NCBI GenBank assembly: GCA_010405405.1 | Contig: MU004230.1 | Coordinates: 902,627-966,626, forward strand | Origin: Microthyrium microscopicum | Taxonomy: Eukaryota | Direction: 5' to 3' | Length of the DNA: 64,000 nucleotides | Shown: positions 11,365 through 60,348 of the stretch, piece after piece | How positions within the stretch are numbered: position 1 is the first letter of the stretch | How the letters are laid out: every line of letters begins with the position of its first letter | The notes under the pieces: generated by a model | The model's database searches: none | What the model was told of the DNA's origin: nothing | Seen by the model: the letters and a program-made list of their open reading frames with translations, nothing else | Position numbers and translations under genes: made by a program

Positions 11365-12353
11365 TGGCTTCTGAGCGTTAGATTGGTTTCTCATTGGCGT
11401 ATCGGAGCAGATCTGGTTTAATGTAGCTGCTCTCAGAATACCCATGCTTTTATTTGCATAGCCCGGAAAGGAGTTAGGCTTTCTCATTGAGATTCGACAA
11501 TCTGGTCTATGAGAGAGAATGATCAGGACGATTGTGTAGATAATATGGACCTTGAACTTCTACTATTTCACAAAGACTAGACACTCCCTGTAATCAACAG
11601 CTACACTTTTCTTGGGCCTATTACGATAGATAAGTCAATCTGGGGAATACAACCTTGGGTGGTCATGTATGACATAACCTCATCTGGTCATCCAGGATAG
11701 TTCTTGATTCTCAGCAATTTGAATCGCTCCGTCGCTGATTTATGTTCTTCACTCACAGCTAATGCTCTTTCTTGTCCCACTTATTAGAAACTTTGCACAA
11801 TAATGATTCAAATATCTTACCTTGAGCTTGGTACCATCCACGGAGTACAAACATTGAGCAGGATCGCTGTAAAACAATATCTAGGCTTGTGATATTGTAA
11901 GAAATCAAATATTGAAAGGATGAAATTTCTTTGCGTATGCTACTAATCGTCGAGAGTTATATGTTACCATAGCAGCATAAGAGACTTTATTACAAGATAG
12001 ATGCCCGTCTTGGAAGGATGACTGGCTTATCGCCCCTCTCAAGCTAGAGAGATCGAGAAGACTTGAATCTTTTGGGTGCGGTATCGGAATGTGTATGAAA
12101 ATGAACAGTCCACGAGGTTTGTGTAGTACGGACTCAAGCTTGGATTTACTGATCTTCTCAAGATGAAGCGACAACGACTGGAATGGATTACATGATCTAA
12201 AAAGAAACAGGATGTCGATAAACTCGTAATTCCAATGACTCCCAAGGTAAAAATGCTGGGGTATCTTTAAAATCTTAGATGCTATCATCCCTTATATACC
12301 AGCAACGCCAAGGCATGCAAAATGAAATCACACCAGTGCTATAATCCGCGTCA

Positions 12354-13139
12354 TTATGTGTCTGAGGAGTTATGTCTTGTGCGTTTAGCGGACTCTCTTC
12401 CCGGTGGTGAAGCTCGAGAGTGATGATCTGAGTGGGGCAGATGTCGCCGTTTGGCACCAGCTCCAGGTCCTAAATGTCCCGCGACTTTCGGTTTGGCAGG
12501 CAGTTTTGTGGAAGCTTCAAACATGAATGGTATTTCCCGGTTGGGCGTTGATGTAGAATATGTATTCGCAGGGGGTAGGTGGTTCTGGTGGGTATTATCG
12601 ACAACTGGTAAAGTTGGATGGGGCGCTGTGAATGTGAAGATGGGATGAATGAGTGAGCCACTTGTGGATGCAACACTCTTCGGTGCTGGTGGTGATTGTT
12701 GTCGCGCGTCGACTGGCTCAGTATCGAGGCTTCGGCTTTGTTGTTCTCGAGTTGTTGTTGGTTCGGTGATGGGTGGCATAGGAATTGGTGATGAAGATCC
12801 TCGCGGAGATACATCCTCTTGGGCTTTCTTCTCCACGCTTGCATTATTGCCCGATTCTGATTTTTCTGTGCCCTCCAATCCTTGGTAAAGCTGCATTACA
12901 AGCTGTCTCACTCGCCAGCCTTCGCCTTCCTGCAGTCCCAGATTCTCTCTGTCCATTTCGGCGAGCAGTTCTTCCAGCGCCTCCTTCGCTCCAGTAGAAT
13001 AAGCTCGGTCAACTTCGGCAGACGCATCCTTATAAAGAGTCGTGAGAGCACATGCTGTATCTCTGAAGGGTTGGAGGAGCTCGTTTCTGCGTGAAGAGGC
13101 GAGTGGGAGGGACCCACGGAGGCCTCGCATAGAATCCAT
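12354..13139 (-). CDS. Fungal hypothetical protein (helical N-terminus, disordered C-terminus)
   Basis: Intronless 261-aa ORF; MDSMRGL..SLP...ELLQPFRDTACALTTLYK start resembles a Pezizomycotina hypothetical family; basic KRR motifs near the C-terminus. Confidence 0.75.
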   Translation of the reverse strand: MDSMRGLRGSLPLASSRRNELLQPFRDTACALTTLYKDASAEVDRAYSTGAKEALEELLAEMDRENLGLQEGEGWRVRQLVMQLYQGLEGTEKSESGNNASVEKKAQEDVSPRGSSSPIPMPPITEPTTTREQQSRSLDTEPVDARQQSPPAPKSVASTSGSLIHPIFTFTAPHPTLPVVDNTHQNHLPPANTYSTSTPNREIPFMFEASTKLPAKPKVAGHLGPGAGAKRRHLPHSDHHSRASPPGRESAKRTRHNSSDT

Positions 13140-13661
13140 GTTGATGAGCGATGGTCACCAAATTGGCTATATTCGCGTTCTATATGTTCTTGATGATAGA
13201 AACAAGAGCGAGCGGAGCGAGCGGTAGTAAGGTAGGTTGATAGAGTGAAGTTGTAGTGTTAAAAGGTTGAAAGTTAATGGAGGCAACGTGAGCCTAGCAC
13301 GTCTTCAGGCATCTGGGCGGCACCTCGGGATCATGCATTTGTTGTCATTCAGCGTAGTCTGTGCGTTGCGCTAGTCTGAGCTTTCGTCGCCCGCCTATAA
13401 GGCTGACTACATCACATGAGAAGGCTGAAATGAGCAAAGAAATGTGACTTACTACTTAGGTATGTTAGTAGCTCATGTTTCTGACACTGAATTTCGTAAT
13501 CACCGCATAGGTATATAGTTTCAATATTATGCATAACTGGTGGACAAGTTTTGTCATCGTGACATTGTAGCACAACTAAAGTGTACCATTGCTAGTAACC
13601 AAAAATTATGAACACCCCCAAGTAAAACAAACCCTCCAGGAGTGTGGCCAACACCATTGAC

Positions 13662-13915
13662 CAAAATAGCAAAAACTCATGATACAGCCCCTACCCGATT
13701 GTAGGAGGTGTATCATGAGGAAAAGCCCGGTGGCTTTTATCTCGGTCGGGGGATCGGGGGATCGTGTTTTTCGAATGGTTTCCCTGAGGGAATTGAGCCG
13801 TCGCCTTACAAGGCTGGACTTGTCGCAATATCATTGCCCGTTAGGGCTAGTCCCGTATTATCCAATAAGCATACAAATTTGATCCAAACGAGGGCCTCAC
13901 TCGCACGCTATTTTG
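13662..13915 (+). ncRNA. Candidate structured RNA, family unidentified
   Basis: Closing stem CAAAATAGC(13662-70)/GCTATTTTG(13907-15); 11-bp stem CTCATGATACA/TGTATCATGAG; AAAAGCC/GGCTTTT hairpin; long-range GGATCGGG/TTTGATCC pairing uses G-U pairs on the + strand. Confidence 0.4.
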
Positions 13916-14235
13916 TATCTTGAAAAAACACTTTTATATTTTGTGTATATATACTGTAGTACAAGATTGACTCTGAGGCTGAACACTGAGCGCCCAGCAC
14001 GTAACGCTCTTTCGTCTATTATTGGACAGATCGTCAATTGGACCTAAAGAAGTCAAACAGTCGATTTTATTTGAAGTGTGTTACCTAAATCTAAAAATTT
14101 GCGCTCCCATTCATTTTTGCGGATGAACCACAGTGAATTAACGCTGCCTGTATAAATACTATGCTCCGACCTAAGAATAAATATAAGGGATCATTCAAAC
14201 AATATCGTCCATCATTAGGACCCCCTCTATGCAAG

Positions 14236-14642
14236 ATGCGTCTTTTGTCTCTCTTCCTTACTACTCTCATCGCTGGCATGACTGCGGCTAGTCCAAGTGT
14301 CTTAGGAGATTTGGGCACCCTCTGCGGTCCTATCAATGGGTAATGAATAAACCAGTGCTCCCCTAGTGATCTCGTGCTTATTAATATTGTACGTAGTAAC
14401 TGCGACGAAAATGGCTGCAACGGCATTCACGCCATTGATGGAATAACTTGCGTTGCCGTAAGTCGCACTGAAGCCTCTTAACCTCATATTTATATACTAA
14501 GCTCTAATTTTCCTAGGGTCCGTACGTTGGATGTCCTTGTGGTTGGAATTGTGGCCCAGATGTTGGCAAATGCAGCGATAACAATTGCGATGGAGATAAT
14601 GGACGATGCAAGAATAACTATCGTGGATGTACTTGCACTTGA
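14236..14642 (+). CDS. Small secreted cysteine-rich protein (96 aa, 12 Cys in two 6-Cys repeats); effector or antimicrobial candidate
   Basis: Exons 14236-14339, 14397-14457 and 14517-14642 with GT-AG introns give MRLLSLFLTTLIAGMTAASPSVLGDLGTLCGPINGNCDENGCNGIHAIDGITCVAGPYVGCPCGWNCGPDVGKCSDNNCDGDNGRCKNNYRGCTCT; TATA-like TATAAAT at ~14151. Confidence 0.85.
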
Positions 14643-14997
14643 GATGGCTTTAAGTACTGGTGAGAACCGTTTCTACAAGATCTTCCGTAGCAGCTTGTAT
14701 CGCCAACGAGAGTTGAGTTTAGCCGTTTAAATATATACCTTGATATGCTTTCAAATGTTGATGCCGACTAACTACGATTCTCAATGTTGCTAAAGTCCAC
14801 ACTTTGAGCTTGTAATGACCATTTGAAGGCTAGATAAGTGTAGTAAAGGTCGACCTCATCATATATACAATGGAACCCAGACTCGAGTCTAAAAATCTAA
14901 AGAAGAGCAGAATGAGAGAAGAACAAAATCCAAAGTATAACAGCCAAATTACAGATAGCATAATGGAACAGTAGGGCCCGTTGGCGGCCTTACTTTA

Positions 14998-15191
14998 ATG
15001 TCTATAACCACTTGCAGTGAAGTAAGATTCGCTGTTGTCTCTTAAAATCACGTTAATTTGCTAAAATTCACACGTAGGGCGGTTATGGCGGTCACGGCTG
15101 TCGCCTAACTTTAGGAGATTGCTGCAACCAATGTCGCAATAGGAGAGGCGGACGATGCACTAGTAACTATCGTGGATGCTCTTGTAAGTAG
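14998..15191 (+). pseudogene. Partial duplicate of the Cys-rich peptide gene (end of exon 2, intron, last exon); relic or alternative terminal exon
   Basis: ...ITTCSE|GTAAGA intron 15022-15077 TAG|GGYGGHGCRLTLGDCCNQCRNRRGGRCTSNYRGCSCK*; the end matches GRCKNNYRGCTCT* at DNA and protein level; no signal-peptide exon found. Confidence 0.65.
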
Positions 15192-16277
15192 GGTTTCTTC
15201 AAGCAGTTATAGGCTTGTTCCTAAAAGCAGAATTCCTTGGTAAACATTCCAGTGGCATGATCTGTTGCTACTTGAGGAATATTTGAGCTGGTACCATTTC
15301 AGGTAGTTAGTCTTTAGGACACGTCCAGCTAAAATAAATTGTCGACAGACCGCAATCGTATGTACTGTGTAAGTCTCAAGTGAGCCGCACTTGAAAGCTT
15401 ATATTGACTGCTTGGGAATAGGACATATAAGGCTTTGGGAAGCGGCTTGTTGAAGGGGCAGATAACTGAGTATACGTTCGCGCATACAATACATCTTTCA
15501 ATATGTTAACGACCTAGGTAAGCGGTATAACAATAGGATTGTGCTAAATATCCTATCAATATTAGTCCAATTTGGCTGCGTCGTCACCAACTCTAATATG
15601 TACCTTTTGACTGCTGGATATTTACTGTTCTACGGGGATTTAAGCTGTCTTCCCTTAGGACACAAAGCAATCTCCATACACACTTTATTTAGAAAGCATC
15701 AGTTATATTATGCAAGGGACTAGTAGCAAAATAACATGAGAGTTTGTGTAGAGTTTCATCTGTTATAATGGCTAATGAAGGTACCAGCCCTCGTTAATGA
15801 TGTTTTCTGTCCGGACTACTATGTGTTATAGCTTTAGTAAGATATAACGATCCCTATATGATGCTACAAAGGATAGGGATAGCACTGCTCATCTCAATGT
15901 TAATTGACCATTAGCGGCTGAAATCTTAGTGCTTTGTGTTATTCGTCCATTAGACGATTAGGTAGAGTAAAGTGAATATTGCTAGCTGAGCCCTCAGCCG
16001 GTGTTTGATATTCTTATAACGAGCGTTTAGGGTCTTCTGATATTCGTCGACTAGACGCGAAGAGTACGTAGGTCTATATTCCTCAAAACACGGTCTCTAC
16101 TCTTAGCACCTGGACAACTAGACCCGACTCAAGTGAACGGGAGTTCCGAATATTAACTTAAGCCTTCAATCCCATCTTATATATACTAATGGACGATGTC
16201 GGTTGCTCATCTTGGCTACATGCCAAAATTTCAAAAGCTTGCCGTTCAATAAAGTCTTTTTGAGTACAATTAACCCC

Positions 16278-30449: not shown

Positions 30450-32930
30450 AGCAGATAGAGTCGAAACTCTGTTTTCTGCCTGGATCAAATAGGTATTGTC
30501 TTGCAACAACTGGTACAAATAGTGCTACTTACAAGTTTGGTCCCAATTTCACCAACTGTGGTGAATATGAGTTGAATGATCGGTCAAGTTGGTAGCTTGA
30601 AACATCTACGAACTGGGGGTGATAAGAACGTAGGAAGATCAAAATGAAGATGGTGTCGCGCATTTGACTTGCATTTGCAACGCGAGACGTTTGCACCACC
30701 ACATGCAGACGAGATGGAGTAAGAAGTAAAGAACATGATTTTTCACGCGGTCTAGGAAGAGCTTGGTCAACCTGAAACACCCAACTTCATAATGTGCCGT
30801 CCACTGAAGCCTGCCCCCCAGCTTGACTGAATTCTAGTATCATCGATGAGCATTCCAAAGACTCTAATTTTTAGGCTATTTTGACTGTGATTGGCTAATT
30901 TTGTTCAAAATCAAGCTGAGGGGGGTCTCAGTGAACGGCAGATTATGAAGTTGAGTTTTATGGTGAGCATATTTACTTAGTGATGATTCGAAGTGAGACT
31001 GGGCAGTTGAAATAGGAGCACCGTAATCAAAAACACTGGACACGAAGAGCAGTTTGAACCGTTCAATTAGTCCCTGTGTTACTTCTTTTCGCAGTGTAGT
31101 GTATTGTGATTTAACGCGATCGAACTTCAACAATACCTATTAAGTTAAAGCTTTCTACTCCCGTTCGCGAATTGGTGAACTCCAACCCTCTACCCCATAC
31201 GTTCATTCTTGCCGAATCTACCAATCACATTGTGAATAGCTCATCACTTTGGGAGGCAAAGGCTCCGGCCTAGGTCCCAGACTTCAAAGCCAGTCCTTTT
31301 TTACATAGCGTGTCTAGTCTGTTTCTGCGAAACTTATATGCTTGTGGACACTAGGGGGGAGGGTCAGAATTCACGAAATTTCGCAAACGGGCGTAAACAA
31401 CAAGACTGGGAGTTAAAGTGGCAAACTACGGACTGGCACTTTGTTCCGGGGGAACAAAATTTGATGGTACAGGACACACATACTATGAGAAAGATTTCAA
31501 TGGGTGAGAAGAGGAAGAATTCCATGCTTATCAAATGATGTAGTTATCTGGAAAGGTGAATTGATGATAATAGCGAACGTCTGCAAGCTGAGATATAGGT
31601 TATTTATGTAGTGATGGGTCGATTTCCGCAAAAGCTTCAAGGTTAACTAACAGCTTGGGGGAGTTGCTGGATACTCCCCCGTTTTCTCGCTTAGTTCTAC
31701 TCGAATCTCAAATTGTAATTGGAATAGACATAGTAGAAGTTTAGTACCATAGAATTAGCGCCCCCAAGACTAAACTGTGGGCGTTCTTGACTGTAAATGG
31801 CTGATCCTGAAGAGATCAAACATTAAAGCTGAGATGAAGTTGGTGTAGGACTTTTCGTCTATCAATGTACATCTAGATGATCGTATTGTCATGGCTATCT
31901 AAGCTGGAATGGGTTGCAACGTTGTGAGTTTTCCGAAGGACAACATGGTCGGGCGGGACTTTGTGTACAGTATTCCTCATATATCAAGAAGTAGAATGTG
32001 GTGGCGGCAACCAAACTCCTTCGAGTATGGTAGTTTTCATATGGAACGATCATAACTCGTTCAATAGGAAAAATCGAAGTTTGGAGCTTAGGTGAGAACA
32101 GTATTGAACCTGTAGTTTATTCTTGGTGTGATTTATCCATTTATGCTGGTAGTACTGGGCAATACATAGAAGGGGTATCCTTCCATAAGCCTCGTCTACA
32201 TCTGGGAGTACAGTACTCCAATGTGCTGTTCCTCTGAAATGCTTGAGCCTGCCTTCCATGGGCTCTTTTGCCTAATTTGAGTTATACACAAAGAACATCT
32301 TAGAGAATGATCAAGCTGGATGTTGTGTGTCTTTCTACTTTCGCTGTGATTAATGGATATAGGAAGCACGGGAGGGTCGAGGAACAGTAATGTCGCGAAC
32401 CAGTGTGCGAGAGTAATATAGCACTGGACAAGCACAAGGCACAATTAACCTTGGGGTGAGTTGTCATGATCGTTGTGCATTGGAAGAAAACAAGGGCTGA
32501 TCGCTCATCAGCATCTGTGATATTTAACCAATAGATATTGCCACTACTGTAGCGTTTTGGCTGCAGCACTAAAGTCATCATAAGACAATAAAAGATTATG
32601 CCATTACCCAGCTCAAATATCAGCAACACCCGACTGCCAGGTGTGATTCTACGCAATCTTCCGGAACCTGTATGGGACTTTCGAAGATTCAAGCAAATGG
32701 ACATGGTAATGGGTGGTGATTCGAAGTGACTGTTCGACCGAAAAGTGTCTGTCTGGCACTACGTCCTTGAAAGTCCAGAACGAATATAAGGGAGAGATAG
32801 TTGTTGAATCTAATACTTTTGGTGTATATTGGAAAAGGTTGGGTCCACGAAAAACGTCTTTCTGGTCTGCAGATGCCTCGTAATGCTTGTGATAGAGAAA
32901 CATTGTTAAAAAAAAGTGCCATTTCATGCA
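30450..32930 (-). pseudogene. Probable decayed protein-coding sequence, unidentified, with a frameshifted C2H2-like zinc finger
   Basis: One frame runs from 32927 to ~32200 with protein-like text interrupted by TAG/TGA/TAA; CSLC...(frameshift)...KHFRGTAH near 32220-32300; intron-like acceptor at ~31138. Boundaries approximate. Confidence 0.35.
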
Positions 32931-33290: not shown

Positions 33291-33978
33291 GGACCAATCG
33301 GGCCAGGATTGGCTAAAGAATCTCGTCCTCATTTTCAGAACACACCCCGAGGTTTACAGAACTCCGGAACAGGTCAACAAAAACTCGGACCGCTCAATGC
33401 TTAAACCCCGAAGATCTTCCTTGTCTCCTGGCTGTCACTACTTGGAAAGAATATCTTTTGACTTAGATGTGCATCTCAAAATTTCTCCAACTTCCGCATA
33501 GGTTGCTATGCGATTGGCAGGATGGAGCAGTTTCGAATTTTCTAGTACCATTCTTCTTGTTGGGTGATGGTATTCAAGAGCACCTACATAAAGTCGAGAC
33601 GATTTACAAGCTCTGGCCTGATCGATTTAGCGTTCCAAGCACATTGGTCGTATTGTGACCAAAGACCTAATGAAGTATAGGTCTAAGACGTCCAGAGGAA
33701 AAGTACCTTTCGCGAATCTGTGTAGATGATAGATATCCTGCTGGAGACACTCTCAAGCTCAAGTTTCCAGAAAAATCTCGCGAGAGCGCCCTGCGAATAA
33801 AGCCGCAGAGCAGTCGAAAGACGTTAGATTGTTTGGGTAGCATCCCATTCTCCTCTTCGATAGCGGTTTGCTTTGGTGTGGTGAGTATGCATCCAGGGGG
33901 TCGATCAGCGGCTGAAATCAAGGTGATGATAGCCAAGTATGGGACCCGGTTTGATTAGCGCTGCTCAACACAGTCCTA

Positions 33979-34207
33979 CCGTAGCTTTCGCATCAAATGC
34001 AGGTTTGATTAACCGCTTTTGGCAATCCCAAATTTGGGATGACCAATATCTTTCACCAATGATAAGTAGAGGATTAATTTCACGTGTGAACAAAAGTTAG
34101 CGCTAGGTAGGGTCCCCTAGGGTCCCCTAAAATTACTGAGTAGTAAGCCCAAATTTGGGATTGCCAAAAGCGGTTAATCAAACCTGCATTTGATGCGAAA
34201 GCTACGG
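33979..34207. mobile_element. 229-bp MITE with perfect 60-bp TIRs and TA target-site duplication (Tc1/mariner-pogo type)
   Basis: TA|CCGTAGCTTTCGCATC...CCCAAATTTGGG (33979-34038) is the exact reverse complement of 34148-34207, followed by TA. Confidence 0.9.
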
Positions 34208-35931
34208 TATCATACATTTATTCATCCAAAGGCTACGCTCGTCACCTTATATAATGTTTTCAACCGATCTCCTTCACTCACGGCCCATATCAGCATTTTC
34301 AGCTTCGGAATCATTGACTTAGCGGTCCAGATAAATACAATTTCTCACTATTCAGGTTGTGATCACTTTTTTGTAAGAGGTTCCCTATTCAAAGCATTCA
34401 TTACTATAGCCTGCTTTGTGTTTGAAAGCTACACCTAGATTTCAAAAGTGGTTGCGCGACCCTCCTCCCCCACAGGTTAGTTTTTATAGTATGCCACCAA
34501 TCATAGCTAAATGAGCCTACCATCTCGGTAGTTGATAATCGGTGTCATCGATTTAGCTTTCAAATTCTGGATTCATAGGCTATTTTGCGTGTCGTTAAGT
34601 GGAAAGGACATTTCGCACTTGGGTGTAGAAGCGGGTGTATGAAGTGCTTTGAACATTTTTAGGGTCATGAGGGGAATACTTATTGTGAATGCAGGCTGGC
34701 CGTAGTACTCAATCAGCCTCTACTCCCAGTTCCAATCCCTAGATTAAAAGATGCCTGGCGTACGATCCCAAAGTTCTCTGTCGAAGCAATTTTTGGATGA
34801 ACTAACTTCAAGTCAATCAAAACATTCACGAATGGTTGGCTAAGAAAGCTGCATTCGGCAGGCCCATTAGCCTGCAGTATTCTCAAGATTCGCCTGGATG
34901 CAGGTACTTGGGGATACCAGCTGAGCGGCAAAGGGCTCTATGTAGTGATATTTGAAGAGATATACCCATAATCGAATGTGAGATATTCACTAATCTGTTG
35001 TTGATCATTAGCAAATTCTTACTAGTTGTTTGAATTGCTAATGGATGGATTGTTTGGAGGGCTAGGTTGATAATACAATTACTAACTCTCTCCCTCCTGA
35101 ATGAACTATGCATATTTTTGCATACGAATTGGTAGATTTCTTTTGAATCTAATATACAACGGGAGGTCGATGCACATCACATTTGGATTATGGGTCTACA
35201 CTTGGTTGCGAAAGGTGCTGTTCCCCAAATCTCCCGTACCTCCTAACATATGCTAGTTTCGACGGAAATCCACCAATCATAGCTAGAATAAAAAAGGTAT
35301 AGATAGGAGCACGATAAATCTCTGCTCCGTGAAGGCCTGGAAGAACCGTGGCGAAAGGGCAATTCATCTACCTACCTAAATTCTGTTACTCTTAAGGAAC
35401 AATGGCTCAAGGTGCTTAGCGCTTAGCGCGCAAGCACCTCTCGCCATTAGCAGAGAGATCAAGGATGATAGAGGCCGGGCCGATAGAGGCCGATAGAGAA
35501 CGATAGAGCCAATTAGAGTGACGGAAACCTATCCCCAAATGAACCAATCAAAGACCTTACTTCAGGAACCAATCAGAGAGACGAAAGAATAATTAATTAA
35601 AGTATGACGTAGGGCAAATTCATTTCCAGGTGGAAAACTCACCAACCTCCCTTTTTCCTTTTTTTACTAATACCATCCCTTCCGAACCTATAGAGGTTCT
35701 TCCAGGCATAAGATTGGGCCTGATCAACTTAGCGTTCCAAGCATTACATTCCGTAGGATATTCTTAGTATGATTGGTTAGATTGAACAGAAAGAGCCAAT
35801 AAATGGTCAGCTCGAGAGATTCAGAAGGACAGCACTTTTCGCAAACCAGTGTAGAAGTAAGTCTAGAAGTTCTTCATTGAGGAAGCCCAATTATTCCAGC
35901 TCTATGTAGTCATTAAATCTTGCTCAGAACC

Positions 35932-38486: not shown

Positions 38487-40683
38487 GACTAGAAAGGGAC
38501 TGAAAGCAAAAGCAGGGTCTCAACAAGTTTTTATCACAAGCTACGAGCAGAAGACTGTTATAATAAGGACATGGTGACGGGAACCTGGATACGACAGCTG
38601 TACTAGCCGGGCCAAATCACAGAAATAATTGACAAGTGCGCGGCAAAGTACCACGGGCGAATAGCTACTAGTTGAACACCGAAGTCCGGCTACTAAAAAG
38701 AAATGTTGGACCACAGCGGTGATTGCGGCTCTTGGTGTCGGAATGTGACATGCAATAGCCCATCAGCATGGGACGAAATGTGAGCCATGACCTAACCTTG
38801 TCAGCATCACCCTGGCGTGGAACGTGGGAGATCGTAGGATTCTAGTGTAAGACGAAGCTAGCTACTTAGTTGAATAATCTAAAAAGTTCTGAACGGTGTG
38901 CCCTCATCGATAGACTTCAAAAAGAAATAAAGGGTTATAGTATTGGGAAATAGAGTCAGGTCTGCACTATGACTATCAATTTTCGCTCTTGGTATTGAGT
39001 ACGAAGACTACTGCTCTGTAATGGAATTGGACTGTTTTTCGTTCAATATATTTGTATAATCTTAGCAGGATAAAGTACTGTGTAGGAGAGATCATTGTCC
39101 TTGGAAAGGTTACCAACCTTCTGTATCACATGTCAACGTGACAAGTCAGTAGTGGCAGGGCTTTCGAGCCATCGGCGCTGTCATAGGCAGACAGGTAGCT
39201 TCAATAGCCAGTGGTGAGGATGAAAAGTCATAGTGTCTATACGTCGGTGCAGTAGAACCGAAAGCGAGGGTCAAGTGGTATGGATGGTGTTTCGCGATGA
39301 CGTTATAGGCATAGACTCGTTAAGGATGTTGTGATATTAACCTGTGATCTTTAAACAATAAGGTTACGGAACGGTGATCATAGACGAATGCGAACGTCAA
39401 GTCCAGCTCTTCAAGAAGTTATGAAGTGGGATCTAGTTGGTAATCAGTTTTTACATGAAGTGTCCGATTAAGCTCATTTAAGAGATTCACTAAGAGCGGG
39501 CGCTAAGCGGGCTGTACATACTCTATTTTGATTAGACCTTCACGTGTCCGAGCATATAGTAATACAAAGGCCGTAACAATTTCATGTTTTAGCAATGTCG
39601 TCTTTGCTATTTTATTTTTCTCATCTTTCGGTCATTGCTCGACCCCAAAGGCAAGACTGTCCAGCTTTATTGAGAATGGCACTTATTTCGAGTTGAGTAA
39701 ACATATTTTTTAAAGAAATTTGTAGATCGAGTCAAGCCTGAAGCAAAATAAGATACTGGAAGTCAAGAGTATTGAATGAGGTAGACGTGCTCACGTGCAT
39801 AACTACGAAGTTGACGGATCCACATGTGCGTATAGGATATGTTAGCTCACTATATGGTCGGCCATTGTATCAAAGCTTCTGCTACGCTTACAAGAGCCTC
39901 AAAACACCAGACGCAGGCTGACCTGCTGCTGGCTTGGAGCGGTCCCGAAGATACGTTTCGGAAGGATTTAGATATTGGACGGCCCGAGATTATATAACAA
40001 GGGCAAGCTATAACATGCCTAGGGCGAAATGGACACCGAGTTCAGAAGTATCCAACAGTATTAAACTTACACTTACTCTTTCTGTATCATACAAGTATTT
40101 GTTAGACGAGCATGTCCTGAAGCATACATGCTCAACTGCTGCACTGTGGTTAAGTAGTTGGATATGCGGCTATCTAATTGGTCGAATGGTTAGCAACTAG
40201 CGTCAAATGATCCTACTACTAGAGATCTGGTAATCTTAACATATAATGTACATACATGATGATCGATGTTTTTACCATTGAAATAATCAATTGGTTTTCA
40301 AATTCAAAGCACAAACTGCATGTGGTTCTCATAGACATGAGAAATGGCCCGAACTACAGACAGTCTAAACTGGTTTAAGCTGTTGATGGCACGGTGGATA
40401 CCTACCCAAAGGTTGTGCATGTGGTAGGTAACCACGAGAAGCAGGTCGTGCCGACCACGCGATATTGAACTCGTATCGCGTGGTCGATACTCTACGCGCG
40501 TGGGCCGTGGCTGGAATGGAGCTTATCGGCGGGGAATCTCAACCCCACCTTCCCTCTCTTCCGGCTTCACCCAATCTAGTATCACGGATCAGACATCAGA
40601 CATCAGACATAAAACTTGTTCTAAATAACTTCTCGACTCCTCAGACAAAGAAGAAGTATATACAGTGAATCAGTGCAAACATC

Positions 40684-42240
40684 ATGGGTGCCACACAGTC
40701 CAAGATGCCGGAGCCGGCCATCGTCGAGAAGCTTACTGAACGACTTAGAGCTATGCAACTAGAGCATGAAGGCGACTATATGCTAGTCGAAAAGATAGGT
40801 CTTGAGAAATCAACACTACACCAAAGCAACGTATCCGTTTCTGCTACGGAAAAATGGTTAGACGATTTGTTACAAGACCCAAAAGCAAGTTCCTTGATAT
40901 TCTCTTTCATGGTACACCATCCGCTAACCGTACCAAAGAACCGCCTTGCAATCTCAGCCTTATCGTCGAATCCACTCCCATCAATACTAACCAAGCAACC
41001 TACGGTCGTTGCAGATACACAAACTTTCAATGTCAACATTCCACTCGAAGGCAGTCCAGTGACTAATCAGCGTTCCTCTGGAAGATGCTGGCTCTTTGCC
41101 ACAACCAACGTAATGCGCGTTGCCATTATGAAGCGGTACAATATCGAGTCATTTGAACTCTCGCAGGCCTACCTCTTCTTTTGGGACAAACTTGAAAAAG
41201 CCAACTATTTCCTCGAAAATGTTCTGGACACGCTCGAAGAACCTCTCGATGGCCGTCTAATGCAGGCACTACTTGGTTCCCCTGTCTCTGATGGTGGTCA
41301 ATTCGACATGGCAGCAAACATCATCAAAAAATATGGACTAGTTCCCCAGAGCGTCTACCCAGACTCTTACAACGCGATGAACTCATCCGCCATGGATCGC
41401 CTGATCACAACAAAATTGCGAGAAGACTGCTTGCGCCTACGCAGTCTTGCCACCAGTACCACCAGTACAAGCACTGATATCAACGCCACCAAACACAAAA
41501 TGCTGCGTGAGATCCATCTGATTCTAACTCTGATGCTTGGCCCACCACCCTCGCCTACTGCACCGTTCACATGGGAATACTATGACAAACTAGGCGCCCT
41601 ACAAAGCACCTCGATGACTCCACAGGAACTTGCAGCCACGCTCTCTGACGCCAAAACTTTGCGTGCCACTGGAGGAACTGATGTAAAGAAGCTATTTTCA
41701 CTTGTCCACGATCCAAGACACGACTATCTTACACACCTGACAGTCAACCGCCTTGGCAATATATGGGACGGAAATCCAGTCAGCTATGTCAACGTCTCGA
41801 TGTCAACAATCAAGAAAGCCTGCATTTCCATGCTACGAGCTGGCATCCCCGTATTTTTTGGCAGTGACGTAGGACAGTCAAGTGACAGCAAGCTGGGAAT
41901 TATGGACACACGACTATTTGACTATGAAGCAGGATTCAATGTGACGCTAGGCATGAGCAAGGCCGAACGACTCGCAGTGGGAGAGAGCGCCATGACACAT
42001 GCGATGGTGTTGACAGGAGTTCATGTGGTTGATGGCAAGTCAGTCAGGTGGCGAGTGGAAAATAGTTGGAGTGAGACTGCGGGAACCAAGGGTTACTTCG
42101 TCATGCACGATGCCTGGATGGACGAATTCGTTTATCAGGCAGTTGTAGACCCAAAGTTTGTGGCTGAGGACGTAAAGAAGGTCTTGTCGAAGAAGCCTGT
42201 CGTATTACCTTTATGGGATCCAATGGGAGCACTAGCATAA
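40684..42240 (+). CDS. LAP3: Bleomycin hydrolase / cysteine aminopeptidase (peptidase C1B)
   Basis: NQRSSGRCWLFA, MTHAM, VENSW and terminal WDPMGALA; probable in-frame GC-AG intron 40885-40938. Confidence 0.95.
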   Translation: MGATQSKMPEPAIVEKLTERLRAMQLEHEGDYMLVEKIGLEKSTLHQSNVSVSATEKWLDDLLQDPKASSLIFSFMVHHPLTVPKNRLAISALSSNPLPSILTKQPTVVADTQTFNVNIPLEGSPVTNQRSSGRCWLFATTNVMRVAIMKRYNIESFELSQAYLFFWDKLEKANYFLENVLDTLEEPLDGRLMQALLGSPVSDGGQFDMAANIIKKYGLVPQSVYPDSYNAMNSSAMDRLITTKLREDCLRLRSLATSTTSTSTDINATKHKMLREIHLILTLMLGPPPSPTAPFTWEYYDKLGALQSTSMTPQELAATLSDAKTLRATGGTDVKKLFSLVHDPRHDYLTHLTVNRLGNIWDGNPVSYVNVSMSTIKKACISMLRAGIPVFFGSDVGQSSDSKLGIMDTRLFDYEAGFNVTLGMSKAERLAVGESAMTHAMVLTGVHVVDGKSVRWRVENSWSETAGTKGYFVMHDAWMDEFVYQAVVDPKFVAEDVKKVLSKKPVVLPLWDPMGALA

Positions 42241-44062: not shown

Positions 44063-46639
44063 TCAGTTATTGGAATTACTTCTGCTATACGTGCCTTCCC
44101 AGGTCAGATTGATTCCACTGTTGCCCCCAAGATTGACTGCTTCATCCTCAAACTCGGAATCCGAGACTGCTTCTGGATTCAGATAAGCCAACTCTCCCAT
44201 TGCTTCGGAATGTATAGATGCTGTATCTGAACCAAAATCCATTTCTTCAAGATCGAGATTCTTTGCTTCTGAATGGGATCTGCCAGATCCATCAACCTTT
44301 CCTTTTGACTTATCATGAAGGTCTACGCCATGCGCTTCAAGAGGATCGTGAAATTCGGGGCTGTCTTTGGCTTCCTCAGCAATATCCTTCTTCTCTACTG
44401 TGATATTTGATTTGTGAGGCTGGGATTTTGGTTTTCGTGGCGGAAGTGATGGCGCTTTCTCTTCGTCCACTAAGCTTAGCAGATCGACTTGCTTCCCAAC
44501 ATCTTCTGCATCCTCATCAACTGCATGTGCTGACTTTTGGGTAGACTTTCGTTCGGCAGCTTTGGAGACTGTCCATTCCACAGCCTTGGCTTCTCTATCT
44601 GCATCATGCTGTTTGGTGACCACGGATTGCTTTTGGCCTTTTCTGTCGAAAGCTTCCCGCTCCTTGGTCTCCCTAATAACTCCCTGCTTGCTAATGTCCT
44701 CGAACTCGACCATATCAAGAATCTTACCAGTCAGATAGCGATACTTCATATGAGTGTCAACCTGATCAGTCATGTTCAGATTCTCAACTCCTTGAACTTC
44801 AGTGACAGCCTTCAGACCAGCAACGTCCATTTGAGCTGAGTTGGCACGGTAGAGAAATCCCAACAGAAGGTCCTTTTCACTGAAAACATTCACGAGTCGT
44901 CCAGTCACAACAGCTCGCAGTCTCGTCCATTCAGCCGAACTGCCAGGAACCGGGGCGCCTATCAAGACTGAATTTTCAACCAGTCCAAATGCGTTCTGCC
45001 TTGAAAGCTCCATGAGACAAGCGTATATTACACGAGCGCCAACTCCCCAGCCTACCAGGGTTACTGGGCGTTCTCCTTGCGCTTTAGCAATCAAAGTTGC
45101 AGCCAGCACTATGCCGGCCTTATCTGCTCTAGTCCGGGCAATATTGAATGGATTGTCCACGACGCGGCCTAATTTGAGGAGTCCCAGTGGCCATAAACCA
45201 GCAGCTATTGAAGCAAACAGTGTTCGACGAAGTAGTTCGAAACGAGCAGTCTCCCAGATATAAGTTCGAAGAACGGTATTGAGAGAGACACCAAGCTTGA
45301 GAAGGGCCGCCGTTTCCCATCTCAGAGAAAAGGTAGTTGTTCCAGGTACTGTAAAAAGTAAAGCTGGATAGAGGTAATCGTGCTCTATTGACAAAGGCCC
45401 AGGAACTCCAATTGCCACACGTAAAGTTTGCTGACCGGTATTCGATTCTTGCGATTTGCTTGGTTGAGTATGATCTGGAGGTATATGAGAGTGTCTTGTT
45501 ACATCCAACCCCGAGTCTGGAGTTTCGTGCTCAATTGGAATAAACTTGAAGTCCTCGACATCCTTCGCAAGCTCATCTACCATTTTCCCAGTCATTTTGG
45601 CTCCATATGCGCCGAACAGCCCTGTGATAAGCAACGTATTTCCGGCCAATGCACCTAGCAATCCGGAAACCGCACCTAAACCCACTGCGCCGAAGACGCT
45701 GCCAATTCCAGCTGCGATTAATGGTGCTGCTAGTCCTCCAGTGACAGCAATCAATGCACCTCCGGCTACCGTTGCAAGACCAACCTTCCATCGTCTTGAA
45801 GCCGCATTATTGGAGGCTTGCTTCTCTACATGCTCATCCCCATCAATTTTTGATGCCACTTGAACTAGCCCTTTTGCCATGGCGTTCTCCAGATTGACAA
45901 GCCCATCTCGGTCTATACCAAGACTTTGCGTGAGCCGTAACATGGTGATTCGCGCATAGGCACTGTAGGATTCCAGGCTCAGTAGAAGTGAAAGTGAAGC
46001 ATTCAAGATAGTTTGTCGTTTCTCTTGTTCCAGACTTGACAGTGATGTCACTACGGGATCATATTCCGTAAAACCGGTCCAGCCAGGAGATCTGTCTTTC
46101 GATGCTGAATCTGGACTCCTCTTACCAATCGCCCATTGGCGAAATTCATCTTCTCGCTTCTGATTGTCTCCTTGCTTTTTGTTCTCTAGATACTGCTTTC
46201 GTGCCTGCTTGACCTGCTCAGGAGAAGCTTTGAGCGCATCACATGTTCTACGAAGAAGCTTTGCTCGCCACGAATCGAAGTGGGTATTCGCAGCGTGCTT
46301 CAATCCAGAAATTGCGGGTGAAGCGAGCTCAATCTTACGAGATTCGCTCCGCTTTAGAGCAGCTTGTTTCAAGGCGGTGGAATTATTGGCAGGTTCGTTG
46401 TCTTGTGCTTTGTCAAGTGACACCAGATCATCGATTGCTGAGCCTGTTGACGGGTCCTGCAATTCGGGAACCTCAAAGCTTGCGTTGATTTCCTTCTTCA
46501 TGTCATCAGTACATAGTAGCAGTAACACGGCAAGCTCTATGCACTGAGATTTCGATAAAACCGATGTGATTGAATCATCGGCAGCTCGGGCGTCTTGTGA
46601 GCTCTCATCGCGAGGTCCTGCGAACACCTTGGAGAACAT
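44063..46639 (-). CDS. DUF726 (TMCO4/Mil1 family) protein, paralog A, with the nucleophile Ser replaced
   Basis: Intronless 858 aa; GLATVAGGALIAVTGGLAAP membrane hairpin, VDNPF, RPVTLVGWGVGARVI. Confidence 0.9.
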   Translation of the reverse strand: MFSKVFAGPRDESSQDARAADDSITSVLSKSQCIELAVLLLLCTDDMKKEINASFEVPELQDPSTGSAIDDLVSLDKAQDNEPANNSTALKQAALKRSESRKIELASPAISGLKHAANTHFDSWRAKLLRRTCDALKASPEQVKQARKQYLENKKQGDNQKREDEFRQWAIGKRSPDSASKDRSPGWTGFTEYDPVVTSLSSLEQEKRQTILNASLSLLLSLESYSAYARITMLRLTQSLGIDRDGLVNLENAMAKGLVQVASKIDGDEHVEKQASNNAASRRWKVGLATVAGGALIAVTGGLAAPLIAAGIGSVFGAVGLGAVSGLLGALAGNTLLITGLFGAYGAKMTGKMVDELAKDVEDFKFIPIEHETPDSGLDVTRHSHIPPDHTQPSKSQESNTGQQTLRVAIGVPGPLSIEHDYLYPALLFTVPGTTTFSLRWETAALLKLGVSLNTVLRTYIWETARFELLRRTLFASIAAGLWPLGLLKLGRVVDNPFNIARTRADKAGIVLAATLIAKAQGERPVTLVGWGVGARVIYACLMELSRQNAFGLVENSVLIGAPVPGSSAEWTRLRAVVTGRLVNVFSEKDLLLGFLYRANSAQMDVAGLKAVTEVQGVENLNMTDQVDTHMKYRYLTGKILDMVEFEDISKQGVIRETKEREAFDRKGQKQSVVTKQHDADREAKAVEWTVSKAAERKSTQKSAHAVDEDAEDVGKQVDLLSLVDEEKAPSLPPRKPKSQPHKSNITVEKKDIAEEAKDSPEFHDPLEAHGVDLHDKSKGKVDGSGRSHSEAKNLDLEEMDFGSDTASIHSEAMGELAYLNPEAVSDSEFEDEAVNLGGNSGINLTWEGTYSRSNSNN

Positions 46640-46998
46640 GACGTATGTATATGTTGTATTCAGTAGACAGACATAGATGATGGCAGTTCTGGACGTTATT
46701 CTCGTGATGATAATTTTGTAAGAACGGAGTAATGGGTCAAGAGGGATTGCTGCCTTATTGAAGGGATGTGGAAGACCCAGCGTCCACTGGTCGCTGTGCG
46801 GCGTGCCACCTCAAAGCCACCCGTGGACTGTCTCAACTGGGAAGGAGCACAACTCCAACTTCACTTTTGCATCTGTGATCTTGATCCTTCGGTTATTCCA
46901 TCCATCCCCATCAAACATACCAAACGGTAGTCAATTCATTGTTCTAGACGTCCGTTTCAGTCACGTACACATGAGGAATCAACATCTCTGATTTCAAC

Positions 46999-48355: not shown

Positions 48356-51300
48356 TCATTCGAATGTCATGGTCATTTCCTTTTCCTTGCCGAATTCATC
48401 ATCAAACTCATCGGCCCATGCATTGTGTTCCAGGTTCATGTTGACTGGAAGGGCGGAGCCAGCCGATATGGATGATGAGAAGGGAGATGACGAGGTGTTG
48501 ATACCAGGCGCTGTGTAGGATCTCTCTAAAGTGGAAGAGGGGTTTGCAGAACCTACTGCAGCTGCAGTTCCTGCACCAGCTGCAGCGGCAGGAGCTATAG
48601 CAGTCTTTGGTTTTGTAAATTGGGAAGTTTGTGGGGTCGAAGGTGATATGGAGCGAAGTGGTGGTGTAAAAGCAAGCTTGCTTGGAGGTGCAGATTGACT
48701 TCGTTCATCTGCTTTGATCATCCGATCAGGGGTTCCCAAACTTTCGTTGGATTTGATGTCCAGTTTCATGGGCGGTAAAGTGGATTCTGGTAATTCCTTC
48801 ACCACAATCCCTTGAGCAGCAAGTTCTGCAACTTCAGCTCGCAGTGCCTCGATATCAAACAAAACGCCGTTTGCTTTGCCCTCTAACACCTCTTTATCCT
48901 CGGTTCCTTCGCGAACCTTTTCATCATACATTTCCCAGTCTTTCTTTTCCACGGCTTCCTTCTTGCGGAACCAACCAAATCGGCTTGTCTTTGTTGGTTT
49001 GTCTTGAAGCTTTTTGCGAGCTTCTTCAATCTCGTTGATCAATTCGCGTTGCCGGCTTTCGTGATTCTCCGGATCTGGATCTTCAATTTCGGTGAATTCA
49101 TCTGATTCGACTTGCCATCCAACCTCGCGCAATAGTCGGGGCATTGCTTGACGGTAGGACATATGACCGGGCACAAATTCGGTGACATTGTAGTTCTCGA
49201 CACCGGGAGTCTCGACGGGTGCAAGCCCGGCAACACGGCTGATACCGCCACTGGTTGCACGGAAAAGATAGCCTTGCAGATGTTAGAATGTAACGTCAAA
49301 ACAGCAAGATAGAACACACCTAAAATCCAGTCATTTGTAGCATAGCCATTGACGAATCGACCGGATACAACCGACCGTAGTTTGACAAACTCATCCGCCT
49401 TCACTACGACAGGAGAGCCAAACATGTAGACGTTTTGGATGATGCCGAATTGACCTCTCTTGGCAAGTTCTCGTAAACACGCATAGATTACACGAGATCC
49501 AAGCGAGAAGCCCACGAGAGTTATTGGACGACTTCCGAGATTTCGGTCAATTAAGGAATCAGCAAGAATCAATCCAGCCAAGTCGCCTCTTGCCAAAGAC
49601 ACTGTCCAAGGGTTGTCGATGAGATAGGCTAGCTTTGTCAGCACGATTGGCAATTGTAATGCTGCCATAAGAGCCACCAGAATTGTGCTACCCAGTACTT
49701 GTTGTAGGGCCTGGGTGAGAGCCTCTGTCGCAAGAATGTTGATAGTGTCACCCATACTTTGGAGCATTTCTGGTTCCCAAAACACCGAGTATATATCACC
49801 CATGATCGGATCAACAGTACTGAAAGGTAGCCGAACGTCATCTACCTTGCCTGTGAGCCATCCTGCAACAGTGACAATAAGGTTTACACGCTTATTGTTA
49901 TGTAATGGCCTATACTCAAAGGTTTGGACAGCGCCAGTTCGTCGTTCTGATGCCTTGAAGCCAATATTTGATCCAGTTACAATTCCCGTTGTTGTGATTA
50001 TAGCCGCACCGCCTGCGCCGGCGAGGAAGCTGCCAGTACCGGCTACACCAAAGGTGGTAAACCCAGCTGCAAGACCAGCGCCGATAACAGGGGCAAGTAG
50101 TCCAGCGGAAAGACCAATGACGAGGCCACCTCCCACTGTGGCCAACCCCATCATGACGAGACGTTTGTTCCGGTTACGCTTTTTCCGATCCTCCATGTGT
50201 TCCTCTTCATTCCAGTTCTCTTTATTTGCTGCTTCTTGCATTTCAAGGGCATCTGTAACTCTCTTTTCGAATCGACAAATATCTTCGACCGAGACATCTA
50301 GATAGGATCCTATTAGTTCCAATAACCTTCTTGAGCGTGAGTCGTATATGGAATCGGCGATCAAAACAAGAAACAGGTCACAAAGAACAGTCCAGCGTAT
50401 ATCAACGTCAAGACTACGAGCTTCAGAGAACTCGGACGGATCTTGTACTCTTGAGACTTCTTCATCTGCCGGCTCTTGCTGTTCTTCTTCTAATGCCATA
50501 TTATTCTGATTGGGTTTGCTGTCGAGATCCTCATCATCGTCTCCGTATGAGTTCTCAAAGGTATTGGTCCGGGGACTTGAGCTACGACTTTTTTCAGATG
50601 TCGGGTATACAGAAAGCCCCTTGTCGGACAAGCCCTTTTCGGAACTTTTCCGGTCCTCTGACACGGCATCCACCGATAGACTGGACTCGGCAGCAGTCTC
50701 GGTCCTCATAGGATTTTTGACTCGAGCATTTTGCATCAATGAAGGTGTCATATCGGATGGCTGAACTCCGTGAGCAGCAAGTTGCTCGATCATGATCTGT
50801 TCTAAAATCATGTTAATTGAGAGCATAACTTGACTCCGACGATTACTTACCAGCGGATTCAATCTCCATATGGCTGTACAATCTAACCATGATCTTTTGA
50901 CTCCACATTGCCATGGCTTCTCTGGCAAGACTGAGGAACTTCTTCGTTTTGCGGCTTTTCTCAAACCTATCAAACTCCTTCATCATCTCAATCATCGCAA
51001 GACGCACGATACCAACATAAGCGATACGCTGTGTTTCGGTCATGATAGTTTTCGTAGTTTGCATTTGCGCAACCTGTATAATATTAGCTCATCAGTCTTG
51101 CACTAGGCCAGCCTGTATCTAAGTTGACCAAAACAGTTGCATCAAACAAGAGCAACATACCATGTCGCGTCCTTCCTCATCTTCATCCATCAGATTTGTA
51201 CTTGGTTCCTTGAATAAATAAGCTGTATTTTCGTCCATACTGGTGGCAGATTGAGCATCCTCGTCCAATTGTACTCGGGTATAACCCTTTCCAGCGCCAC

Positions 51301-59321: not shown

Positions 59322-60348
59322 GATGTCAGTCTGGTTTGTATGTTTACTGAAGGATGACTGTTCTGTATGGATATGAGATTGAGAAGTTCGTAAATGTTGG
59401 AGGTTGTGGTGAATTGATTGCTAGGCAACTGAGCAAGGCGACTGAAGATGATTTGACTGCCACTGTGAGCAGGTACCAACGGCAATGACGTGGAATAGTA
59501 TTGGGAAAGAACAGACAGTAGGAGCGGGCACGTCACATTTAAATTAAAGACCGACTTGACATTGAATAGCGACTACTGGACTCTGGAGCATGTGCCTGCG
59601 TGTCCCATATGAAAGCTGGGGCAAGATGACTGCGGGGGGTAGGGTAACGACCGAGGTGTCAAAAGTAAGAGCTTGCGGCCTTGTGAGCTTGTGAGCTGTA
59701 AGAGTAGCTCTCGTGCTTGCTTCGTCACTACCTAGTCACCACAGGCTTGAGGCTTCAGATACTACAGTAGTATCTGTAGTATCTCGATCTGGTCGGTACG
59801 GCCGAACTGTTACTGCTGGTGGGGACTTACTTCCTTGATCATCTAGCCATATCAAGGTATGGTGAGAATTTGAAAAGTCTCAACGATTGCATTCTGCTAG
59901 GCAGTAAAGGCAGTTCATTCGAATATTTAAACCAAGCACTTTTTGAAGCTGTTCTATTCAGGCCTGGCTTGAGGGAGCATCGAACACCAACCCTGATCCA
60001 CAATTCAGATCTGATGTATTGGAACCCATGAGCGATAGTGGTGGGCTCAACGAGTCAACGTTGAACGAGTTTCGGCTTTGTGTGAATCACTGAAGTTAGA
60101 GACCTGTGTAGGCGGGTCGTTCGTGGATCTTATGCTTCCATCAGTAAAAGGCTGCTCCAGATATCGTTCCCGCATGACAGTCTAATAGGACTACAAAGGG
60201 CACTCTGCATAGAGCCACAGTCGAGATCAGTAGTGAGAAACATTGAAGGAGGAATGGCGATTGAAAAGGAGTAACCAGCAGCCAGTTACATTACGATGTT
60301 GCAGATAAGATAAGATGAATTCTTGAGGAGGGGCAATAGAGCAATTAA

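Follow-up and report, generated by a model that had tools for sequence, protein, structure and literature searches.

What is the 254-nt stretch at positions 13662–13915, where several stems crowd together between two genes of a 64,000-nt window (the whole stretch of DNA analysed)? The original prediction put forward a candidate novel structured RNA loosely recalling RNase P/MRP, and kept a foldback mobile-element remnant as its fallback reading. The window itself looks eukaryotic and more precisely fungal, with short GT..AG introns and a G+C content of ~47%. The stretch lies between two divergently read genes whose RNA-covered parts are 887 bp apart. The left neighbour, a 261-aa ORF on the minus strand (12354–13139) for which no Pfam family was found, reads away from the element, and an RNA-derived contig (record 17 of sequencing run X5) spans 12300–13241. 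The right neighbour, on the plus strand, runs from an ATG at 14236 to a stop at 14642 and is interrupted by two GT..AG introns, as seen in a spliced X5 contig with exons 14128–14338, 14396–14457, and 14517–14723. Because of this spliced contig, X5, at first taken as RNA by guess, is regarded as carrying RNA-derived contigs. The right gene product, of 96 aa, is small, harbors 12 cysteines, and has a signal-peptide-like start (judged by eye), and for these reasons it is labelled a putative effector-like secreted protein. The element precedes the ATG of this gene by ~320 bp and position 14128, where RNA cover begins, by 172 bp. Elsewhere in the window, DUF726 is found in two neighbouring ORFs of the minus strand (44066–46810, E 1e-106, and 49042–50979, E 1e-110), which, sharing strand and domain, correspond to a local paralogue pair.

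The three main stems that had been described are present and go beyond chance. At the ends, the left arm of a 9-bp terminal inverted repeat, CAAAATAGC (13662–13670), is 100% complementary to the right arm, GCTATTTTG (13907–13915), and a weaker second copy of the right-arm motif (83%) is found at 13932–13943. A first subterminal palindrome (13676–13719) is composed of an 11-bp perfect stem (13676–13686 / 13709–13719), a 5-bp inner stem, and a 6-nt loop; lengthened by CCTAC/GTAGG, its stem has 19-nt arms that are 89% complementary and form 16 pairs. A second subterminal palindrome (13721–13738) pairs AAAAGCC (13721–13727) with GGCTTTT (13732–13738) in a 7-bp stem around a 4-nt loop. It is followed on the plus strand by a tandem duplication of the 8-mer TCGGGGGA (13746–13761). 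A search of the 64 kb for perfect hairpin stems of at least 11 bp, with loops no longer than 40 nt, located 3 places (5 overlapping 11-mer hits), where 30 dinucleotide shuffles averaged 0.57 11-mer hits. As a rough estimate, ~0.1 inverted repeats of 9 bp are expected per stretch of ~250 nt, so that such a repeat alone is not rare; it acquires meaning here solely through the agreement of its left arm with the left border of a repeat family, described below.

How far does the folding of the stretch exceed what such stems would bring by themselves? Taken whole, the 254 nt fold better than shuffles on both strands, with z values of -3.46 (plus) and -3.15 (minus) and with 0/200 and 1/200 shuffles, respectively, folding as well. 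Folded with DNA parameters, they give a z of -3.03, and the stretch ranks 11th–15th among 1994 composition-corrected 254-nt windows. The source of this excess is the two left hairpins plus the end stem alone. The two hairpins (13674–13740) reach z values of -7.0 (plus) and -6.6 (minus), with no shuffle as good among 200 on either strand, whereas the remaining 166 nt (13741–13906) give +0.56 and +0.81, shuffles being at least as good in 137/200 and 159/200 cases. The expectation that the fold would surpass shuffles on both strands therefore holds for the stretch as a whole and fails for this 166-nt part. Because 13741–13906 folds at shuffle level, the long-range helix and the four small hairpins (GCCTT, GCAAT, GCCC, and GGACT) that had been proposed there are as expected of any sequence of like composition. 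As regards the helix, GGATCG/TGATCC is retained in the minimum-energy fold, the rest is absent, and CTCG pairs locally. It had further been suggested that G–U pairs on the plus strand betray selection at the RNA level, but the minimum-energy fold has 6 such pairs on the plus strand versus 9 on the minus strand. Since the fold is as good on one strand as on the other and with DNA parameters, its excess comes only from Watson-Crick palindromes, and G–U pairs are no commoner on the plus strand, the stems reflect DNA-level palindromy and not selection on an RNA strand.

A second line of evidence comes from other copies of the sequence. Of five sequencing runs that contain the stretch, three were analysed. 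Contigs of two DNA runs, X1 and X3, which represent one sample that is possibly the window's source, and of the RNA-derived run X5 were aligned to 12300–15300 (3001 bases). On these 3001 bases, 67 contigs aligned in X1 and 33 in X3. Sorted by likeness (99% or more, 95–99%, 90–95%, and under 90%), the counts are 25/18/13/11 for X1 and 11/9/6/7 for X3. Among the pieces listed, the unique flanks are each represented by one or two long exact contigs in X1 and X3, and dozens of short diverged contigs (80–99% alike) are confined to 13659–13956. Only four bins, together 13613–14016, have a raised summed contig depth: against ~930–1105 in the flanks, X1 reaches 6795, 10762, 17771, and 2814 there, and X3 rises from ~113–119 to 680, 574, 1274, and 300. 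The depth maximum lies at 13720, adjoining the second palindrome, in both runs (30216 in X1, 2035 in X3). Summed contig depth is not equivalent to copy number, and the depth ratios suggest roughly 5–30 copies, varying by segment. Neither a second copy nor an autonomous partner is found in the 64-kb window, where blastn of 13640–13960 returned the sequence itself, its own hairpin, and matches of 11–17 nt with E values of at least 1.9.

The limits of the contig matches define a wide-sense element of ~298 bp (13659–13956), and the flanks provide evidence that does not depend on depth. On the left, the matches of other copies start at 13659, 13661, or 13664, with differing letters before, and none of these breakpoints is more than 3 nt away from the start of the left arm (13662). 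Loose ends on this side are provided by three X5 contigs, one for each of three different flanks, by 3 contigs in X1 (0.58 agreement), and by 2 in X3. On the right, the matches end at 13922, 13923, or 13953, with one piece continuing to 13956, and again the letters that follow differ. The loose ends given for the two sides are those listed, with 30 further ones besides. Homology with some copies thus runs ~40 nt beyond the right arm. This common tail (13916–13956), seen in record 16 of X3, which aligns over 13897–13956, holds GTATATATA; the flanks behind 13922/13923 resemble 13938–13952 again (TTTG, one base, GTATATAT; by eye). Given that the diverged contigs are restricted to the element and break into different flanks, we are dealing with a dispersed repeat family and not with a single RNA gene. 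It is the fallback reading, that of a foldback mobile-element remnant, that these many diverged contigs with their different flanks favour.

Across the copies, conservation is found at the ends and variability in the centre. Differences cluster in the loop and the inner stem of the first hairpin (13695–13705), where other copies carry insertions of 1–2 nt, and in the centre (13766–13859), within the variable central and right body of the element (13741–13906). A 1-nt deletion in one other copy affects 13761, at the end of the TCGGGGGA tandem. At the places listed within 13766–13821, a single other contig aligns (depth 909.7 of 1907.5 in X1). A deletion form lacking 57 nt (13765–13821) is represented by a single contig in each of the two DNA runs. 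The copy differences in X1, 14 transitions versus 11 transversions, display no clear bias, and a signature of RIP was thus not retained.

Does any of this leave room for a structured RNA? At the gathering cut-off, Rfam gave 0 hits in the whole window, a strong hit being what had been named as making this a known RNA. Relaxed scans with E values up to 10 returned 4 rows for 1.1 kb and 3 rows for 316 nt, with no RNase P, MRP, tRNA, 5S, SRP, or spliceosomal RNA among them. The best row, mir-3118, scored 20.2 bits against a cut-off of 89 bits (E 0.19–0.64). This model and its companions (mir-4012, RefB11, and bxd_7 in the 1.1-kb scan; BMV3_UPD-PK1 and ceN40 in the 316-nt scan) were set aside as chance matches, their scores lying far under the cut-offs. 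ARAGORN found no tRNA-like structure. A metagenome scan for an exact 19-mer from the first hairpin retrieved 0 loci; three gapped-palindrome matches (L001–L003) were all unrelated hairpins, without a blastn match at E <=1e-3. The likeness to RNase P/MRP comes down to a multi-helix look with a closing end stem. Unlike those RNAs, the element matches no covariance model, is multi-copy with diverged copies, folds at chance in the region where the core helices would lie, and, as the original prediction had already remarked, lacks P4 and P2. An undescribed gene for a structured RNA, present in single copy and distantly resembling RNase P/MRP, would account for the whole-stretch fold surpassing shuffles, but it is very hard to reconcile with a sequence that is multi-copy in the DNA runs, with the empty RNase P/MRP search, with a would-be catalytic core at chance, and with a strand-symmetric fold. 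This explanation is accordingly considered highly improbable, and the headline of a novel structured RNA finds no support, given the lack of a gathering-level Rfam match, the strand symmetry, and the chance level of most of the claimed architecture.

A different RNA-based explanation would retain the multi-copy nature of the element. The hairpins could be small-RNA precursors (miRNA-like or siRNA), or the unit could be a mobile structured ncRNA. Hairpin RNAs derived from MITEs are found in plants, and the 16 pairs of hairpin 13676–13719, with a z of about -7 together with its neighbour, speak for such an explanation. RNA-derived data also bear on it. Within X5, pieces of other copies are found in contigs of 659, 2326, and 2570 nt, so that copies sit in several transcribed contexts. 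One X5 contig of depth ~2510 carries 13664–13701 of a diverged copy and is then unlike the window; as the depth of the neighbouring gene is 616, a highly expressed transcript may include one or more copies of the family. X5 has no cover in the bins 13310–13612 and 14017–14117, and 0 of its 8 contigs match the element region at 95% or more, from which no conclusion on the expression of this copy follows. Against RNA production as the nature of the family, however, stand the lack of strand preference, the miRNA match at chance level, and the fact that the element pieces in RNA are embedded in much longer contigs. The base changes between copies argue in the same direction. Record 6 of X1 corresponds to one diverged contig that spans the centre, with 21 differences and 4 gaps over 179 nt. 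Six changes fall within the four small stems, and none is compensated (by eye): four turn a Watson-Crick pair into a G–U pair on the plus strand (13804, 13826, 13833, and 13852), and two give mismatches (13819 and 13834). Read by eye, these changes offer no hint of covariation, their number being too small for statistics. In other contigs, G>A changes at 13704 and 13705 disrupt the inner stem of the first palindrome on the plus strand (by eye). An RNA-producing element is, on balance, quite improbable, and a miRNA precursor in particular is at odds with the 20.2-bit score and the strand-symmetric hairpin.

If the stretch is a copy of a repeat, to which class does it belong? The element measures 254–298 bp. 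Its only ORFs, of 67 and 71 aa, have no Pfam matches, and the search of the 71-aa ORF against a protein collection returned 1 candidate, with none at E <=0.01. Short, non-coding, and present in many dispersed copies, it resembles MITEs in these respects. It starts with CAA, and the inverted repeat ends with TTG. This repeat does not extend beyond 9 bp: only 10 matches are found over the first 20 positions and 15 over the first 45, with an alignment score identical to the shuffle mean. When right ends at 13915, 13943, 13955, and 13965 were considered, the extension scores ranged from 3.0 (13915, the shuffle mean) to 7.0 (13965), none exceeding the shuffle maximum. Next to 13662/13915 there is no target-site duplication, and the single candidate consists of two ATTGAC 6-mers on the plus strand (13656–13661 and 13966–13971), a pair that needs an end at 13965 that is not seen among the contig breakpoints. 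Dispersed copies flanked by target-site duplications had been named as the mark of a transposon; the dispersed copies are present, and the duplications are represented only by this candidate pair. Helitron termini (TC...CTRR), a Tc1/mariner TA, and a PIF TWA were also considered at 13662/13915, and none fit the usual definitions (by eye).

The main rival at this point is another class of repeat, namely a solo LTR, a SINE-like retroposon, or some other element without terminal inverted repeats, in which case the 9-bp repeat would be incidental. The asymmetry of the unit, whose homology passes the right arm by ~40 nt to reach ~13953–13956, is atypical for a MITE and speaks for this possibility, as do the very short inverted repeat, the lack of a flanking duplication, and the A-rich character of two of the three long flank strings at left breakpoints. 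Solo LTRs are defined by TG...CA ends with a duplication of 4–6 bp, and their usual size is about 300 bp, which is also that of the element; a TG at 13658–13659 lies near the left edge and a CA at 13962–13963 on the right. Yet the adjacent 5-mers, ACCAT (13653–13657) and AGATT (13964–13968), differ (by eye), so that this TG...CA reading lacks a matching duplication. A SINE is disfavoured by the absence of tRNA-like structure (ARAGORN) and of tRNA, 5S, or 7SL/SRP similarity in the Rfam rows, and by the lack of an A/B-box pair and of a poly-A or simple-repeat tail, as judged by eye against the usual consensus. For the whole group of alternatives, moreover, perfect subterminal palindromes and conserved ends around a variable centre belong more typically to class II non-autonomous elements. 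A repeat without terminal inverted repeats is hence held to be unlikely. The same low weight is given to the more specific idea that the family represents an unclassified non-autonomous kind fitting no usual superfamily, which would be characterized by 9-bp CAA...TTG repeats, two subterminal hairpins, an asymmetric TATA-bearing tail, and a 6-bp footprint.

Several other palindromic features were observed in the window. A 233-bp foldback element at 33977–34209, with 67-nt arms that are 97% complementary and TA adjoining both ends, is the strongest in structure among the 254-nt stretches of the window (z of about -9.4 on either strand); to judge from its sequence, it looks like a young Tc1/mariner-type MITE. 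Two further inverted-repeat units, at 30776–30959 (32-nt arms, 88%) and 34961–35198 (16-nt arms, 88%), are candidate older MITE copies. By blastn within the window, none of the three has sequence similarity to the 13659–13956 element. A 13-bp perfect hairpin with an 11-nt loop (40452–40486) is located ~180 bp upstream of a Peptidase_C1_2 ORF that is bleomycin-hydrolase-like (40669–42237), and is followed at ~40590–40610 by three tandem copies of the 7-mer CAGACAT. Finally, a short palindrome and near-tandem unit, AGATACTACAG / CTGTAGTATCT, forms an 11-bp perfect stem at 59757–59784.

The position of the element in front of a gene raises another question, that of a link with promoters. One possible explanation is a promoter module that has been duplicated among paralogous genes, for example those of small secreted proteins, by segmental duplication, the GTATATATA tail being a TATA element. 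The distances of this copy to the ATG and to the first RNA-covered base of the 12-cysteine gene would suit such a module, and so would the TATA-like run of the common tail. On the other hand, the flanks of the copies become different a few nt at most from fixed points, on the left as on the right, and pieces of other copies lie inside long RNA contigs in both orientations (X5 records 18, 19, and 21), which does not agree with a fixed upstream position. A duplicated promoter module is thus viewed as quite improbable. A parallel for the location is provided by Fusarium oxysporum, in which the available text of PMC3599309 places mimp (miniature impala) elements in the promoters of SIX effector genes, within 1.5–2 kb upstream. 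As with mimps, a small non-autonomous element precedes the gene of a small secreted protein (~320 bp upstream in our case), this being one copy only and the likeness one of position. According to the same text, deletion of the mimp left the expression of SIX1 and of SIX3/SIX5 unchanged, and an upstream position alone therefore implies no regulatory role, as far as that account goes.

Taken together, the stretch is probably one copy of a dispersed non-coding repeat, either a MITE-like or foldback non-autonomous DNA element or the decaying relic of one. This assignment follows from its small size and non-coding nature, its conserved ends and variable centre, the existence of a deletion form, a left edge that corresponds to the arm of the inverted repeat, and the perfect subterminal palindromes. 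The presence of other foldback elements in the window, such as that at 33977–34209, speaks for it as well. The conspicuous stems would then be DNA palindromes of the element, i.e. the 9-bp terminal inverted repeat and the two subterminal hairpins, and the other stems that had been claimed would be chance pairings. As usual in such elements, the terminal and subterminal palindromes may be the parts recognised by a transposase or able to fold back, mobility would be of the cut-and-paste type with the transposase supplied in trans, and insertion might have an effect on neighbouring promoters.

The closest described analogues, as far as the excerpted text of PMC3227409 allows the comparison, appear to be the EFT families of Epichloe festucae. 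This text reports 13 degenerate MITE families with mean lengths of 83–524 bp, represented by 5–97 full copies plus deleted forms, with a mean pairwise identity of 62–83% and a bias to the 5' regions of genes. In the rows shown of Table 2 of that paper, the inverted repeats measure 25–61 bp and mostly have recognisable duplications (TA, AT, and TWY). Like the EFT families as there described, the present element is short (254–298 bp) and non-coding, has contigs that are 80–99% alike and a 57-nt deletion form, and lies between two gene starts. By contrast with them, it has an inverted repeat of 9 bp only, two subterminal hairpins, an asymmetric tail, and no established duplication. The papers found for the source fungus together with transposable elements do not, to judge by titles and the openings of abstracts, deal with the repeats of this fungus.

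What the element means for the genome that carries it is probably modest, since the feature is an ordinary one, of little importance past annotation. As the palindromes of this apparently unannotated repeat family mimic the folds of an RNA, the family should be masked before structured RNAs or regulatory motifs are searched for in this genome. Two aspects are nevertheless worth a look. First, the short ends, the asymmetric tail, and the possible 6-bp footprint may define an unclassified group of transposons. If this were true, such elements could bring a portable promoter piece or a source of hairpin RNA in front of genes, such as that of the secreted cysteine-rich protein. Second, the copies are perhaps enriched before genes for secreted proteins, as are the mimps in Fusarium.
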